From the IMG/VR virus record IMGVR_UViG_2534681990_000031: a stretch of 39,588 nt of DNA; one strand, 5' to 3'. The notes under the pieces are model-generated. The model saw nothing but the letters and a program-made list of their open reading frames with translations. It did no database searches and was not told the origin of the DNA. This document shows, one piece after another, positions 3,804 to 22,069 of this stretch (position 1 is the first letter of the stretch; the number at the start of each line of letters is the position of its first letter). The position numbers and the translations under genes are program-made. Origin of the DNA: a virus. Lineage: Duplodnaviria > Heunggongvirae > Uroviricota > Caudoviricetes.

Positions 3804-3838
3804 CCCGCCAGCCATATCATGACCGGCGGGATTTTTTT
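3804..3838 (+). terminator. GC stem (CCCGCC...GGCGGG) followed by T7 run, plus-strand terminator-like element overlapping esterase stop codon
   Basis: 6-bp stem with 15-nt loop then ATTTTTTTAT; T run is on the plus strand only; the loop is long for an intrinsic terminator. Confidence 0.3.
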
Positions 3839-5876
3839 ATTCTGTTACCGCTTTTTTCACTTCCACCACAATGCTGTCAATCAGCACCGGGTAAGTTGCA
3901 TTTTTTGTGATATCCGTTACGCGGAGTTTGTCCACCGGGAAAGTTCCTACTGGTGACTGCGTCAGGGTAAACGCGGCACCATCCTGACCATCAATAACCG
4001 GAATAACCTGAAGGCTGTTATTTCCTGCAAAACGGAAGGCCAGCGTATGCCATTCATTATCAAATGCACCAAAGGTTCCCAGTTTCTGGTTATTTGTTGC
4101 CACTTTTGCATTGTGGTACATCACATTCAGGTCTTTTGCGTCTGTCTGGATGTAGAACGATGCCAGCAGATTATTCCCTGCATCCCCTGTCAGGGTGACA
4201 CCCTGCGGCAGAGAGGAAACCGGCCAGTAAAGCCCCATGACATACTGGTTTGCCACCAGGTCGCCAGGTACTTTAAAACGACAACTGATTAAACCACCAT
4301 TTTTCAGCAGTTCAGCACCAGTACCGGCATCATGATCCAGATACCAAGATGATTTACCTGTTTCCTTGGTCAGTTTCATTGCCTTACCACCTGTGCCTCC
4401 TGCATCACTGATAATTTCAGCTTTACCGCCAGCCGGCTCCCAGCCCTGGGCTTTCAGATTTCCTTCTGACTCACTGACACGATAAGACAGCAGTGTTGTG
4501 GTTACTGCTTCAGTTTCTGAAGGTGACGGCACTGGTGCTTCAGTTTCAGAAGATGGAACATCGGCTTTTACTGTGGTTCGCCCCGCATGAGTCAGAACTG
4601 CCGTGGCCAGACGGTCGGAAATAATCCCACGACGTGCCCATGAACTGAAATGGCTGGCCCGGTCCGCAGATGTCCAGGTGGCGGCACTGTTACGCCACGT
4701 TGAGCCGTAATAACCAATGGATTCAATATCCGGGTCTTCTGCCGGATTGTTGGTGGGTACATTCGCGTCATTTTCATCTGTCATTAATGGAACGAAATGA
4801 ATGTTTTTATCTGTTTTGTTTTTGTAGCCGCCATAGATTGCCTGGTATGCCGGTTCATTTTTCTGTTTCCAGAAATACGTGGTATCGCCACAAATCCACG
4901 GAACGCCAGCAGCACTGCCACCGGTACACTGTTCCGCCTGTTCAGCCAGGTCTGCGCGGAATTTTTCCACCATCGCCAGAAACAGCGCGGAATGCTCCGT
5001 CGGCTTCGCATCAATATCAAACTCGCCCTGCATCCACACCACAGCAAGCAGGCGGTTTTTCGGGTTCTTCGCCAGTGCCGCTTTTGTCCGGCTGATTAAG
5101 TCCTTATACAGCGGCTTATCCACACCCCAGCGGGCTGAGTCCTCTGAAGCACCCGTGCTGTCACTGTACGTGCCGTCAGCACCCGCCGTGAATGCAGAAC
5201 CACCACGGCAGCAGGGAACCAGCAGAATCCCCGCATCTGCCGGAATAAACGGCAGCAGTTTTTTGGCAATGTGAAGCCCCTGACCCACGGTGCCATATTG
5301 CCCTTTAGCCACATCCGCTTTCGGGTGATTTTTTCCACTCATATCCTGCACATCATGCAGACAGTGGTCGGCCAGAATGATGTCGTTATACTGACAGGCT
5401 TTACCTCCCGGCGTGACTGTACTGCGACGGGCTAACTGCATAATACGCGGTTCGGGGCGGTCATATGTCTCCGGCAGTGGCAGACCTTCACCGTAAGCCA
5501 TACCGTTTGACTGACCAGCAAGAACCACCACGTAATACCAGGAAGGGGAGCTGGAAGCAGTTTCATTTCCTGACGGACGGGTATGTGTTTCAGCATTATC
5601 CCAGTCTGACGGTTCAGCAGTACCGGCAACATCAGCACTTAACGGAATGACCGCACCAATACCCGCTCCGGTAATTTCCACACTCGGATCACCGGATACT
5701 GGCCTTACCCACAGGCAATCCCGTGTATTAAAACTGATGAGACAGTCAGCAAATGTCATTCCTCCTTTTGTTTCGGCCGGAGGAAAGGGAGCCTCAAGAA
5801 ATGCCGCTGTACCACCGGAAACTTTAACAGTAAAGTTTCCGGGCATTGATGATAGTTGAACCCATTTGGACGTCAT
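3837..5876 (-). CDS. putative sialate O-acetylesterase-type SGNH/SASA hydrolase with C-terminal beta-rich (lectin-like) domain; NanS-p-like prophage cargo
   Basis: Track ORF 679 aa; VVVLAGQSNGMAYGEG (GQSN block I) and LLAVVWMQGEFD motifs typical of the SASA esterase family; S/T/P-rich linker PSSETEAPVPSPSETEA; sits between gin and com where Mu has no gene. Confidence 0.6.
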   Translation of the reverse strand: MTSKWVQLSSMPGNFTVKVSGGTAAFLEAPFPPAETKGGMTFADCLISFNTRDCLWVRPVSGDPSVEITGAGIGAVIPLSADVAGTAEPSDWDNAETHTRPSGNETASSSPSWYYVVVLAGQSNGMAYGEGLPLPETYDRPEPRIMQLARRSTVTPGGKACQYNDIILADHCLHDVQDMSGKNHPKADVAKGQYGTVGQGLHIAKKLLPFIPADAGILLVPCCRGGSAFTAGADGTYSDSTGASEDSARWGVDKPLYKDLISRTKAALAKNPKNRLLAVVWMQGEFDIDAKPTEHSALFLAMVEKFRADLAEQAEQCTGGSAAGVPWICGDTTYFWKQKNEPAYQAIYGGYKNKTDKNIHFVPLMTDENDANVPTNNPAEDPDIESIGYYGSTWRNSAATWTSADRASHFSSWARRGIISDRLATAVLTHAGRTTVKADVPSSETEAPVPSPSETEAVTTTLLSYRVSESEGNLKAQGWEPAGGKAEIISDAGGTGGKAMKLTKETGKSSWYLDHDAGTGAELLKNGGLISCRFKVPGDLVANQYVMGLYWPVSSLPQGVTLTGDAGNNLLASFYIQTDAKDLNVMYHNAKVATNNQKLGTFGAFDNEWHTLAFRFAGNNSLQVIPVIDGQDGAAFTLTQSPVGTFPVDKLRVTDITKNATYPVLIDSIVVEVKKAVTE

Positions 5877-5975: not shown

Positions 5976-6536
5976 TTATTTTTCCGAAACGCTCGCAGGA
6001 TAATAACGATAAAGGGTTGAAAGGCCGATATCAAAAATAAGTGCCACCTGTCTTCGACTGACACCCCCGGCCAGTAAACGCCCGACCTGCTCGTATTGTT
6101 CCTGCGTGAGACGACGGGGTCTGCCGCCGGTTCGTCCCCTTTCACGGGCAGCTGCAAGACCAGCCCGTGTCCGTTCGACAATTAATTCACGCTCCATTTC
6201 TGCCAGCGCACCCATTATGTGAAAAAAGAAGCGCCCCATGGGGGTTGACGTATCAATGTTGTCAGTAAGACTACGAAAATTTATCCCCTGTTGCTGTAAT
6301 TCATCTGTCAGCGCAACAAGGTGGCGCATACTGCGCCCCAGCCTGTCCAGTTTCCAGACCATCAGTGTGTCACCGGGTTTTAGTTTCTTCAGTGCCCGCT
6401 TCAGTCCCGGCCGCTGTGTCGTTTTACCACTCATTTTATCTTCAAAAATCTGCTCACATCCTGCACATTCCAGCGCATTTCTTTGTAAACCTGTGTTCTG
6501 GTCATTTGTTGATACGCGTATATAGCCAATCAGCAT
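5976..6536 (-). CDS. gin: Gin/Hin/Pin-family serine DNA invertase
   Basis: MLIGYIRVSTNDQNTGLQRNALECAGCEQIFEDK... closely resembles recalled Mu Gin including catalytic-Ser motif RVSTNDQ and C-terminal HTH. Confidence 0.9.
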   Translation of the reverse strand: MLIGYIRVSTNDQNTGLQRNALECAGCEQIFEDKMSGKTTQRPGLKRALKKLKPGDTLMVWKLDRLGRSMRHLVALTDELQQQGINFRSLTDNIDTSTPMGRFFFHIMGALAEMERELIVERTRAGLAAARERGRTGGRPRRLTQEQYEQVGRLLAGGVSRRQVALIFDIGLSTLYRYYPASVSEK

Positions 6537-6617: not shown

Positions 6618-6961
6618 CTGTAAACAGGGCCGCGAATGCCCTGCCATCGAACGGAGCGGCTGTTGCAGCGAATAAACTCGCCACTCCAAGAAATATTAAT
6701 GGTGTCCCATTTGACGGAACGCAGGATATAAATATTACATCGGGGATGACGCAGTCTGTGGCTGACTCACGTTATGTTCAAAGCATTCGAAGAGGTTCAA
6801 GGTCAACGATTGGAATGCAATATAATATTTTTGAGGTTCCTGACGGATGCGTACTTACAGGGCTTGATGTCGCTGGTGATGGTAATGCAACGGTAACCGC
6901 ATATTATCGACCTGTTCAGTTTCTGATAGATGGTTCGTGGAAAACAGCTTCCAGCGCATAA
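6599..6961 (+). CDS. silent alternative tail-fibre C-terminal cassette (S'v-like), promoter-less and start-less in this orientation
   Basis: Open frame begins right after a TGA at the gix site; shares ~60 aa with the expressed fibre then a distinct 60-aa tip ...GCVLTGLDVAGDGNATVTAYYRPVQFLIDGSWKTASSA. Confidence 0.6.
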   Translation, partial: NLGLRDTVNRAANALPSNGAAVAANKLATPRNINGVPFDGTQDINITSGMTQSVADSRYVQSIRRGSRSTIGMQYNIFEVPDGCVLTGLDVAGDGNATVTAYYRPVQFLIDGSWKTASSA

Positions 6962-7040
6962 AAGTGCAGTAGTTCAAAAAACAGATTATCTGAATAAATA
7001 TATGATGATTTTGTCTTTTCAACAAAAACAAGGTGAAATA

Positions 7041-7562
7041 ATGGAGCTTATTAACGTAAAACGATATTACCCGGAACACAAACCCTATGGTGAGGATGTT
7101 CAGTATTTCCAGAGTGAGGACGGAAGGGATTTTTATGAATCTATCCCGCTTTTCACAAAGAAATACAAACTCTGTATTTCGCCTGTAACGGGTATTATCT
7201 GCTCTGTTGCTGAAGATGTCTCTGCTTTATATCCGGCAGGTTTTACTGTTGTTGAAGTGGACGAACTGCCGGAAGGTGTGAATATTGACGGTAACTGGCA
7301 GTTTTCTGATGGCCTGATATCAAAGGTGCCGGTAAACTGGAAGACGGTTGCTGAAAAGCGCCGCTCATCGCTGCTCCAGGAAGCCAACGAAACTGTGGAT
7401 GACTGGAAAACGGAATTAAAACTGGACATGATTAGCGATGAAAATAAATTACAGCTGACGCGCTGGATGGCGTATATCCGACAGCTTAAAGAAATGCACT
7501 TTAATGATATTGCCAGTGAGGGGCATTACCAGGCGATTCCCTGGCCGGAAAAACCGGAATAA
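7041..7562 (+). CDS. tail fibre assembly chaperone (Tfa/U'-like)
   Basis: MELINVKRYYPEHKPYGE...GFTVVEVDELPEGV...AIPWPEKPE has Tfa-family architecture; AAGGTG RBS 6 nt upstream; follows the silent tip cassette; track ORF starts earlier at 6930. Confidence 0.7.
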   Translation: MELINVKRYYPEHKPYGEDVQYFQSEDGRDFYESIPLFTKKYKLCISPVTGIICSVAEDVSALYPAGFTVVEVDELPEGVNIDGNWQFSDGLISKVPVNWKTVAEKRRSSLLQEANETVDDWKTELKLDMISDENKLQLTRWMAYIRQLKEMHFNDIASEGHYQAIPWPEKPE

Positions 7563-18430: not shown

Positions 18431-18991
18431 TTACAGTTCCTCCGGCGGTTCGACCGCCGTTGTCGTGTTCCCCGGCAAATCAATATGTGCCTCAAACGGC
18501 GGCGTACCGGGCGGCTCCACAAAGGTTTCGTAATGACGCAGGAAGTCGTCCAGCGAGCTGGTATCGGTCAGCGGTGCGATCATTTCCTCGCAGGAGAAAT
18601 AAAGCGCATACATCACCGCACCACTGTCCGCCTGGGTTTCGGTGTAACCGTTGACCGCCTTTTCAAAGTAAAGCGGTGAGGTTTTTTCTGTTCTGAAGCC
18701 GTTAAGCACGGCAATCAGCCGGGCCACAATCTGATACAGTCCGGGACGGCTGGCCTCACGCCCGTTGAGCATGTCGCCGATGACGTAGAACACCCAGTGA
18801 CTGACCAGGCGACCACGGGTACGGCCTTCACCGGCACCCAGCCAGGCAACGTAGATCGCCGGGGCGTTAATCAGCATGGTGCGCAGTACGCTGTCGCTCC
18901 AGTCGCCGGGATGCGTGTCAACAGACACCAGTTCATTCCCGAAATACTCACGGATACGGGCGATGTATGCCTGTTCGGTTTCCGTAATCAT
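18431..18991 (-). CDS. head-tail connector/neck protein (Mu gp37-like)
   Basis: 186 aa; synteny. Confidence 0.55.
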   Translation of the reverse strand: MITETEQAYIARIREYFGNELVSVDTHPGDWSDSVLRTMLINAPAIYVAWLGAGEGRTRGRLVSHWVFYVIGDMLNGREASRPGLYQIVARLIAVLNGFRTEKTSPLYFEKAVNGYTETQADSGAVMYALYFSCEEMIAPLTDTSSLDDFLRHYETFVEPPGTPPFEAHIDLPGNTTTAVEPPEEL

Positions 18992-19407
18992 ATGAAGCCC
19001 TTCTGGTTGCGCCCGAATACCGCTGCATCAGACTGAACCTGTGGTAAATCCCCGGATTCAGGGGCCGCACCGTTCGTATCCACACCGACCGGCACATTGC
19101 CGTTCATGACATCTTTCAGCCAGGCCAGCGCTTCACGGTAACGGTCACGCGCCTGATCGGAGGCTCGCTGATCGCACAGGTAATAAAAGGCAATCGCGCA
19201 ACAGTGCTGAACAAGAACGGCCGGAATAACCTCCAGCGGCAACGTGTAACGGGCGGACAGATAGCTGTCGATAAGGGCTGACGCATCTGTCAGCGCCCGG
19301 TTCAGCTTGCGCGTGTCCGGCTCATCCGAACGGGGCACAGCCAGTAACGGCCTGAGCAAATCCTCGCGGTAACGCGCCCGCATATCGGTTTCAGTGGCGT
19401 AATTCAT
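18988..19407 (-). CDS. head-tail joining protein (Mu gp36-like)
   Basis: 139 aa; synteny downstream of major head gene. Confidence 0.55.
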   Translation of the reverse strand: MNYATETDMRARYREDLLRPLLAVPRSDEPDTRKLNRALTDASALIDSYLSARYTLPLEVIPAVLVQHCCAIAFYYLCDQRASDQARDRYREALAWLKDVMNGNVPVGVDTNGAAPESGDLPQVQSDAAVFGRNQKGFI

Positions 19408-19778
19408 GCACGGGCCTGTTCCGCTTTGTTACCGGTCTTTTTCCGGGGAGCATCCTGTCCGGCTTCGGCTTCGGCTTCGGCTTCGGCTTCGGCTTCGGCT
19501 AAATCTGTACCGGCCACTGCATGAACCACACCCGCCACGCTCCCCGCATCATCAGCAGACGTCTGTAGTATTCGCACAGTGAGGCATGGCTCCTCCTCCA
19601 GTCGGGCAAGCTGCTCCGGGGTGACCTCAACCTGCTGACGTCCACGCGTGAACAGGAACCCCGCACGACGAAACGCCGAACGACTGCAACGCACTTCTGC
19701 CAGCACCGTGACAGAATTGTCACCACTGACCTGAAGACCTGAATCATCTGTTGCTGCCACAGTGTGATGTTCATTCAT
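19404..19778 (-). CDS. head-associated protein (Mu gp35 position) with C-terminal (Glu-Ala)n tract
   Basis: 124 aa; ...LAEAEAEAEAEAEAGQDAPRKKTGNKAEQARA; located between major head and gp36-like genes. Confidence 0.55.
   Translation of the reverse strand: MNEHHTVAATDDSGLQVSGDNSVTVLAEVRCSRSAFRRAGFLFTRGRQQVEVTPEQLARLEEEPCLTVRILQTSADDAGSVAGVVHAVAGTDLAEAEAEAEAEAEAGQDAPRKKTGNKAEQARA
19461..19500. repeat. (GGCTTC) hexanucleotide tandem repeat, ~6.7 copies, in-frame inside a CDS
   Basis: ggcttcggcttcggcttcggcttcggcttcggcttcggct read directly; encodes (EA)n on the minus strand. Confidence 0.9.
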
Positions 19779-19821: not shown

Positions 19822-20769
19822 TTACAGATAATCCGCGACAACCAGCTCCAGCTTACCCTTCATCTCGTTAGAGACGGTTGCGTTTCCGTCTGCGAACAGT
19901 TCACGCTCCAGCAGCTGCACCGCCTGTTTTTCCAGCGAGGTGGGGACAACAATATGGGTGGGTTTAATGCCGAGTTTGCGGCCACCGTCAGCGGTAAATT
20001 CGCGCATGGCTGACCAGCCGTGCCACAGTGCATCCAGCGTCAGCGGTGACTGCATCATGTAGGCCATCTGCCAGAAGCCGTAGCCCACATTGCGACGGGC
20101 GGATGCACCAAACACAAATTCGTTATCGGTGAATGCGCGACCTTCATCGACTTTGGTCTGGGCAACCAGTTCAGCCTTACGGCGATCCTGATAAATCAGC
20201 GGTTTTACCGCGCGGGAGCAGTCAAGCAGATACCAGGCCGGACCGCTGTAATCAGCCTGTGCGCCGACAGAGCCGGTTTTTGCCACAAACATATTGCTGA
20301 CCATCTGCGCATCCCCGGAGCCATCCACTTTGGGGTAAACCGGATGTTCGGTATCAAAGAAGTTCTGACCGTCATAGCAGGCCGCACTGATCCCGTCACG
20401 CAGGGCAGCAAAGACCAGCTCATCCGGTTGTACCGCCGCAGCGCGCCCCATCTCCTGGAACAACGGGGAATAAATACCGAGGTTGTCGTCTTCGAAGTCA
20501 TCGCGGCTAATGGCGACAGTGCCTTCAAAAGTTTTGTTCACGATGGCATAGCCATAGGCTTTCATCTTCTCGATGACGCGGGAGCCGATCCACTCACGGA
20601 ACTGCGGGAACTGCCCCAGCCAGCCGTAGGTGTTGGATTTCGATGTGGAGGGCACGGTCATCGCAATTTTTTTATACTGCGACGGGGCCATGGACATCCC
20701 GGCCTGAAAATCAGAACGGTAGCCCGTCATCAGGGCTGTGATCATCGCCGGTGTAATCGGGGTAGGCAT
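19822..20769 (-). CDS. major head subunit (Mu T-like)
   Basis: 315 aa; follows I protease/scaffold gene with overlapping stop/start; sequence type matches Mu-like major head family. Confidence 0.85.
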   Translation of the reverse strand: MPTPITPAMITALMTGYRSDFQAGMSMAPSQYKKIAMTVPSTSKSNTYGWLGQFPQFREWIGSRVIEKMKAYGYAIVNKTFEGTVAISRDDFEDDNLGIYSPLFQEMGRAAAVQPDELVFAALRDGISAACYDGQNFFDTEHPVYPKVDGSGDAQMVSNMFVAKTGSVGAQADYSGPAWYLLDCSRAVKPLIYQDRRKAELVAQTKVDEGRAFTDNEFVFGASARRNVGYGFWQMAYMMQSPLTLDALWHGWSAMREFTADGGRKLGIKPTHIVVPTSLEKQAVQLLERELFADGNATVSNEMKGKLELVVADYL

Positions 20770-21893: not shown

Positions 21894-22069
21894 TCCGGCA
21901 GCATAAGCCGGGAATTTTCAGGGCGGGTTTTGCGGGATTTCAGGAAGTGCTTCCAGGGGAAAAATACAAAGGCGCTTCACGCAGATTTTAAAGCCCGTTA
22001 AATACAGGTTAGAAAATCACGACACGCGCCTGAAGGGGGTAAGGTAATGCATTTGCATACCTTAAACAA

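Follow-up and report, generated by a model that had tools for sequence, protein, structure and literature searches.

A length-variable hexanucleotide repeat in a gp35-like gene of an Sp18-type Mu-like prophage, matched by primer sequence to the EHEC typing locus EHC-5

Why would a perfect short tandem repeat be carried inside a head-region gene of a Mu-like prophage, and does its length matter to the phage? The question is raised by a 39,588-nucleotide stretch of DNA (IMG/VR record IMGVR_UViG_2534681990_000031; the whole stretch is called the window here). TRF reports a (GGCTTC)6.8 array on its + strand at 19460-19500, with a period of 6, 100% matches and a score of 82, and this is the sole array in the 39.6-kb window with a score above 50. 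Read directly, the letters of the array are cGGCTTC x6 GGCT. The run of period-6 self-matches is 35 positions long, far more than chance would give: across 300 simulated sequences that kept the dinucleotide content, the longest run was 7.5 on average and 12 at most. The coding strand consists of GCC GAA codons, giving the peptide (Ala-Glu)6-Ala, or A94-(EA)6, at residues 94-106 of the protein, and GQDAPRKKTGNKAEQARA follows directly after residue 106. The TRF array and the frame of the 124-aa minus-strand ORF bear out the original prediction of an in-frame hexanucleotide microsatellite encoding an (EA)n tract. An ORF that crosses the repeat on the + strand (19406-19582, reading 'RLRLRL...') was rejected as spurious because the homology is carried by the minus-strand frame. 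The accompanying remark that such a repeat is unusual inside a structural-module gene was overstated, as the hexanucleotide is a standard unit size of EHEC MLVA loci. Eight of nine E. coli O157 MLVA loci have units of 6 or 7 bp (PMC3777172).

The 124-aa ORF (19404-19778, minus strand) is a Mu gp35 / HI1506-related gene, as indicated by the ORF list, Pfam, PDB, PHROG 3622, RefSeq and the annotation of the Sakai genome, where it is ECs_4975 of prophage Sp18. RefSeq labels the protein 'HI1506-related protein', and Pfam detects FluMu_N (PF17891) in it with E=9e-9 and 35.3 bits, above the gathering cut-off of 25.8. The NMR structure 2OUT, of Haemophilus FluMu gp35 (HI1506/HI1507) and the only one solved among the relatives, matches the protein by sequence with E=1.5e-4 and is also the best Foldseek match to its model and the sole PDB entry returned. 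The gene directly upstream encodes gpT, the Mu-like major head subunit (19822-20769, minus strand; PF10124, E=6.6e-119), and downstream is a Mu gp36-family gene, a head-tail adaptor according to the Mu annotation (18988-19407, minus strand; PF07030, E=3.5e-35). The gene order past gp36 is gp37, DUF2635 (gp38) and the tail sheath, based on Pfam. In phage Mu, gp35 is annotated as an HI1506 homologue and occupies the same slot between gpT and gp36, so the position originally proposed for the gene, that of Mu gp35 between major head and connector genes, agrees with both the Pfam neighbours and the Mu gene order. The gene thus has the domain score and the gene position of the Mu gp35/HI1506 family, and it lacks the two-domain architecture. 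Its TGA stop overlaps the ATG of gp36 (ATGA), an arrangement that suggests translational coupling of the two genes. A literature search found no role for Mu gp35/HI1506, and the PHROG families are labeled 'unknown function'. We noted that ECs_4975 (NC_002695.2, 5061524-5061910) is annotated in Sakai as 'DNA processing protein', for which we found no support in PHROG or Foldseek.

The repeat turned out to have a name already. EHC-5 belongs to the MLVA scheme in use at Japanese public institutes (Izumiya et al. 2010, 2020), and its primers are given in the S5 Table of Hirai et al. 2023 (PMC10062581). The forward primer ATACTACAGACGTCTGCTGATGA matches 19549-19571 on the minus strand and the reverse primer CCGCTTTGTTACCGGTCTTTTTC matches 19421-19443 on the + strand, each exactly, with 0 mismatches and at a unique site, so that the pair converges around 19460-19500 with an amplicon of 151 bp. 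The other 17 published primer pairs, from the Japanese and PulseNet sets, have no match in the window. Judged by these primer sequences, as given in a later paper that has Izumiya among its authors, the array is EHC-5, already known as an EHEC typing marker. On the minus strand, 19460-19500 is then the perfect hexanucleotide VNTR that forms the array of EHC-5, an assignment that draws on the TRF call, the sequence, the chance test and an allelic series of n=1-20.

The published typing results agree with this identity. Part 1 of the strain table of PMC10062581 covers 142 O157 isolates, of which 104 are null for EHC-5; the 38 that carry it show 11 alleles by capillary MLVA (2, 3, 5, 6, 7, 9, 10, 11, 12, 13 and 14). 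The isolates CEC18128 and CEC18136 in this source are the same at the other 16 loci and have EHC-5 alleles of 5 and 9. Both copy-number variation and absence from many O157 strains were therefore found for EHC-5, and the capillary genotyping provides independent wet-lab evidence of the same behavior that we describe from genomes below. Variable presence of EHC-5 also matches residence on a prophage that only some strains carry: of the 5426 complete E. coli genomes compared, 228 have it. The papers that we covered use EHC-5 solely as a marker. In the searchable literature we did not find its coding context, in which the repeat encodes an (AE)n tract in the tail of a gp35 homologue that has no C-domain and belongs to Sp18, and searches on rotations of the repeat motif, Mu-like prophage, Sp18 and ECs4975 returned nothing relevant.

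To survey the locus we compared 601 bp around the repeat with complete E. coli genomes. The matches, in the 228 genomes just mentioned, have spans of 577-685 bp, and the genomes are mostly O157:H7, with O26, O103, O111 and O145 also present. Among the E. coli loci that we fetched, the array was pure (GGCTTC)n between essentially identical flanks with n=2, 3, 4, 5, 11, 13, 14, 15, 18 and 20, compared with n=6 in the window; the array of Sakai Sp18 has n=8, and in a sub-lineage with a 9-nt longer tail we read n=17 and n=1. An evenly spaced sample of the 229 E. coli records, in which n was deduced from span lengths, has no gap in the series from n=1 to n=17, and the n=1 allele is common (7/59 sampled records). 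In eight IMG/VR contigs whose flanks match exactly, n is 3, 4, 4, 5, 6, 7, 8 and 11, and a scan of IMG/VR for long alleles (~11-21 units) found none. The repeat number is thus variable among relatives (n=1-20) and not invariant. The original proposal, that slippage adds or removes Glu-Ala dipeptides without breaking the frame, is supported, as the ORF is kept throughout this range.

The array also changes quickly. The cattle isolates 118, 113 and 121 have n=15, 14 and 13, respectively, with 0 mismatches in flanks of 20,161 and 20,404 bp (40,565 bp in all), so that length polymorphism is present among closely related isolates with identical 40.5-kb flanks. Among the matches listed, the 21 strains of that cattle set fall into just the same three span classes. 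Between the window and UTAK-8, whose prophages go back to a single insertion event in caiC, there are 5 substitutions and one 1-bp indel over ~39.5 kb, yet the arrays have n=6 and n=11, and the genome 2013C-3252 contains two copies of the prophage with n=13 and n=8. The array mutates far faster than the surrounding DNA, and it does so by whole units. We give almost no weight to the idea that these counts reflect assembly or sequencing artefacts. Many draft-genome proteins are labeled 'partial' and end within the tract, indicating that short-read assemblies break there, but finished complete genomes differ by whole 6-bp units with perfect flanks, and capillary electrophoresis of EHC-5 gives the same allele range.

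With its short, pure repeat on a pathogen's mobile element, the locus may bring to mind a phase-variable on/off switch acting on the gp35-like gene or on its coupled neighbor gp36. Two rare database proteins, P0073 and P0082, are indeed out of frame here, but they are isolated entries and their differences did not arise by unit slippage. The 6-bp unit is always in frame: every allele that we fetched is annotated as an intact CDS, and all alleles read, n=1-20, retain the ORF with its stop overlapping the gp36 start (ATGA). In addition, the array lies within the coding region at least 53 nt upstream of the gp36 start and not in a promoter or spacer, so neither the frame shift nor the change in promoter spacing that defines a phase-variable contingency locus was found. 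We consider an on/off switch to be extremely improbable.

What the array does change is the length of the protein, and the architecture of the protein indicates where. Its folded FluMu_N core spans residues ~21-72 (19563-19718, minus strand), with four strands, a helix and one more strand in the AlphaFold2 model, pLDDT of ~80-86 over residues 21-70, and the Foldseek match to 2OUT. Residues 73-124 (19407-19562, minus strand) form a predicted disordered C-terminal tail, in which a Gly/Ala-rich linker leads into the (AE)n tract and then into a short basic end, PRKKTGNKAEQARA. The model has no secondary structure after residue 72; pLDDT is ~50 or lower from residue 75 on and below 50 at residues 75-109, which include the whole (AE)n tract, and at most of the residues beyond. 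The model was built on a shallow alignment of 18 sequences and has a mean pLDDT of 61.2, and based on it we place the (AE)n tract in a tail that is predicted to be disordered. Alternatively, the (AE)n stretch could form a single helix with a length-dependent role. Alleles share a conserved short basic end beyond the tract, and in view of this the entire tail may have a function. We observed that the C-terminus occurs in two forms, ...NKAEQARA and ...NKAKQAKKARA, which differ by 9 nt (window 19407-19430 and its homologues). Each form is found with many repeat numbers, which indicates a second, slower indel polymorphism in the tail.

The tail is where this protein departs from its family, as it takes the place of the helical C-domain of Mu gp35/HI1506. 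Mu gp35 (136 aa), the Edwardsiella relative P0084 and a majority of the distant relatives that an exhaustive HMMER search turned up have FluMu_N, an acidic or proline-rich low-complexity linker, and a helical C-domain of ~50 residues. Homology to P0084 ends at window position 19503, which is the edge of the repeat. A C-terminal domain encoded elsewhere in the window was not found by tblastn (best E=0.12), and this search also ruled out, within the window, a C-domain present as a separate gene, as in the split HI1506/HI1507 annotation. Judging from these comparisons, the repeat-bearing protein is an atypical gp35 homologue that has kept FluMu_N and in which the C-terminal domain is absent.

We infer that the mechanism behind the variation is replication slippage (slipped-strand mispairing), which would shift the copy number by whole 6-bp units, with one Ala-Glu dipeptide gained or lost in each event. 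What is known of slipped-strand VNTRs is found here, namely pure units arranged head to tail and whole-unit changes between otherwise identical sequences. The mutated units have themselves been tandemly duplicated, as in AEVEVE, AESESE and AGAGAGAG. The array appears to have grown from a single 'LAEAG' seed, which survives as the n=1 allele: the equivalent place is '...TLAEAGG...' in Mu and 'DLAEAGQD' in the shortest E. coli allele, and both sequences fit growth from one seed unit. Long arrays are codon-pure, always GCC GAA, and this purity points to a process at the DNA level and not to selection for an Ala-Glu peptide. With a unit length divisible by three, slippage can neither break the frame nor uncouple the gp36 start, and this frame-safe unit probably accounts for the persistence of an unstable array in the midst of a late structural operon.

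The remaining issue is whether the length itself is under selection. It is conceivable that the (AE)n tract is a spacer that tunes the reach or the charge balance of the basic C-terminal end in a head-associated protein. The gene is part of the head module, lies between major capsid and adaptor genes and is coupled to gp36; the basic end that follows is conserved among alleles; distant relatives all retain an acidic or proline-rich low-complexity linker at this place; and the range of alleles is wide. Against this, Gly, Val, Ser, Lys or Thr can stand at the Glu positions, and some alleles have whole stretches of AG in place of AE. Alleles with n=1 are also common (7/59 sampled records), the purity of the array points to a DNA-level process, and the tract is predicted to be disordered. 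We therefore regard functional length tuning as unlikely. On this view slippage would give rise to phage subpopulations that differ in capsid assembly, DNA interaction or stability, making the array a structural contingency locus on a transposable phage. The reading in which a minimal gp35-type head-module protein, having shed its C-domain, uses the tract as an acidic spacer of tunable length seems to us likewise unlikely.

With a predicted disordered tail and no C-domain, the protein tolerates from 1 to at least 20 dipeptides. In our reading, variation in tract length is most likely tolerated and close to neutral, so that the array would serve as a fast molecular clock for typing and not as a regulatory or phase-variation switch. 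Taken as a whole, we consider it very likely that the locus is the EHC-5 VNTR, lying within the gene at the gp35 position of a Mu-like prophage of the Sp18 type, with length variation that is driven by slippage, tolerated and most likely near-neutral.

The element that carries the array is itself of interest. In Sakai it is annotated as 'prophage Sp18, Mu-like phage' at 5,040,971-5,079,729. In the window, the insertion site is caiC, where host DNA (1-1589) gives way at 1590 to the mom end of the prophage, and among complete genomes this caiC junction is common to the window and UTAK-8 only. The same phage, at ~99-99.9% identity, is found beside many host genes (ypdA, dprA, irp1, creC, sbmA) or beside genes of other prophages, and so many insertion sites at this level of identity indicate, from sequence comparison, that the prophage has recently been mobile by transposition. 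The repeat locus occurs at 267 places in 229 records, NZ_CP027442.1 among them, with up to four copies per genome.

We also noted other features of the prophage outside the repeat-bearing gene. Between the invertase and mom there is a gene for a 679-aa cargo protein (3837-5876, minus strand) with a SASA sialate O-acetylesterase domain (PF03629, E=6.5e-12) and DUF6645 (E=2e-69) and no PADLOC match. The protein resembles the NanS-p type esterases of EHEC prophages, here on a Mu-like phage. A serine recombinase (Resolvase and HTH_7; 5976-6536, minus strand) adjoins tail-fibre and tail-fibre-assembly genes (6758-7562, + strand) whose orientation is opposite to that of the rest of the late operon, and this region looks like an invertible host-range switch of the Gin/G-segment type. 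Near the center of the prophage there is a 176-bp non-coding gap (21894-22069) between the G-like and the I-like (protease/scaffold) genes. In Mu, G and I flank the central strong gyrase site.

For genome scanning, this locus is a positive control, as reading of the raw sequence flagged a hypermutable locus that has been used in national EHEC surveillance for more than 10 years. For typing, the location of EHC-5 on a mobile prophage, at times in several copies with different alleles, accounts for null alleles and leads one to expect multi-peak or discordant MLVA results now and then. Breaks of short-read assemblies in the tract make in-silico MLVA from draft genomes unreliable at long alleles. 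What we add is modest, namely that the marker is in the predicted disordered tail of a gp35 homologue that lacks the C-domain, on a prophage that is mobile and sometimes multi-copy. Tolerance of 1-20 dipeptides in a protein without the C-domain slightly constrains ideas about what the gp35 family needs.

Compared with Mu gp35 and FluMu HI1506 (2OUT), the window protein has a homologous N-terminal domain and occupies the same slot between gpT and gp36. An acidic low-complexity stretch follows the domain in both cases, '...TLAEAGG...' in Mu and 'DL(AE)nAGQD' in the window protein. In contrast, Mu gp35, HI1506 and a majority of the distant relatives have the helical C-domain of ~50 residues that the window protein is without, and the expanded perfect repeat of the window protein is in none of the gp35 relatives that we inspected. 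With the simple-sequence contingency loci, such as the tetranucleotide repeats in surface genes of Haemophilus and Neisseria, the array shares a hypermutable, slippage-prone repeat in a pathogen. Those loci switch expression by frameshift or promoter spacing, whereas the EHC-5 unit is a multiple of three inside an ORF and alters only the length of the protein.

The closest comparison is with EHC-5 itself, which is the same locus as the window array, variably present and multi-allelic where present, with no difference at the DNA level. The other hexanucleotide O157 MLVA loci (O157-3, -9, -17, -19, -25 and -37 of the PulseNet, Keys and Noller sets) likewise have a 6-bp unit, show stepwise gain and loss in clonal lineages and are used for outbreak typing. 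Eight of nine O157 MLVA loci, with units of 6 or 7 bp, mutate in serial passage, and all nine are scored in EDL933 (PMC3777172). These nine are chromosomal or on pO157, whereas EHC-5 is on a transposable Mu-like prophage and, as a result, may be absent from a strain or present in several copies with different alleles.
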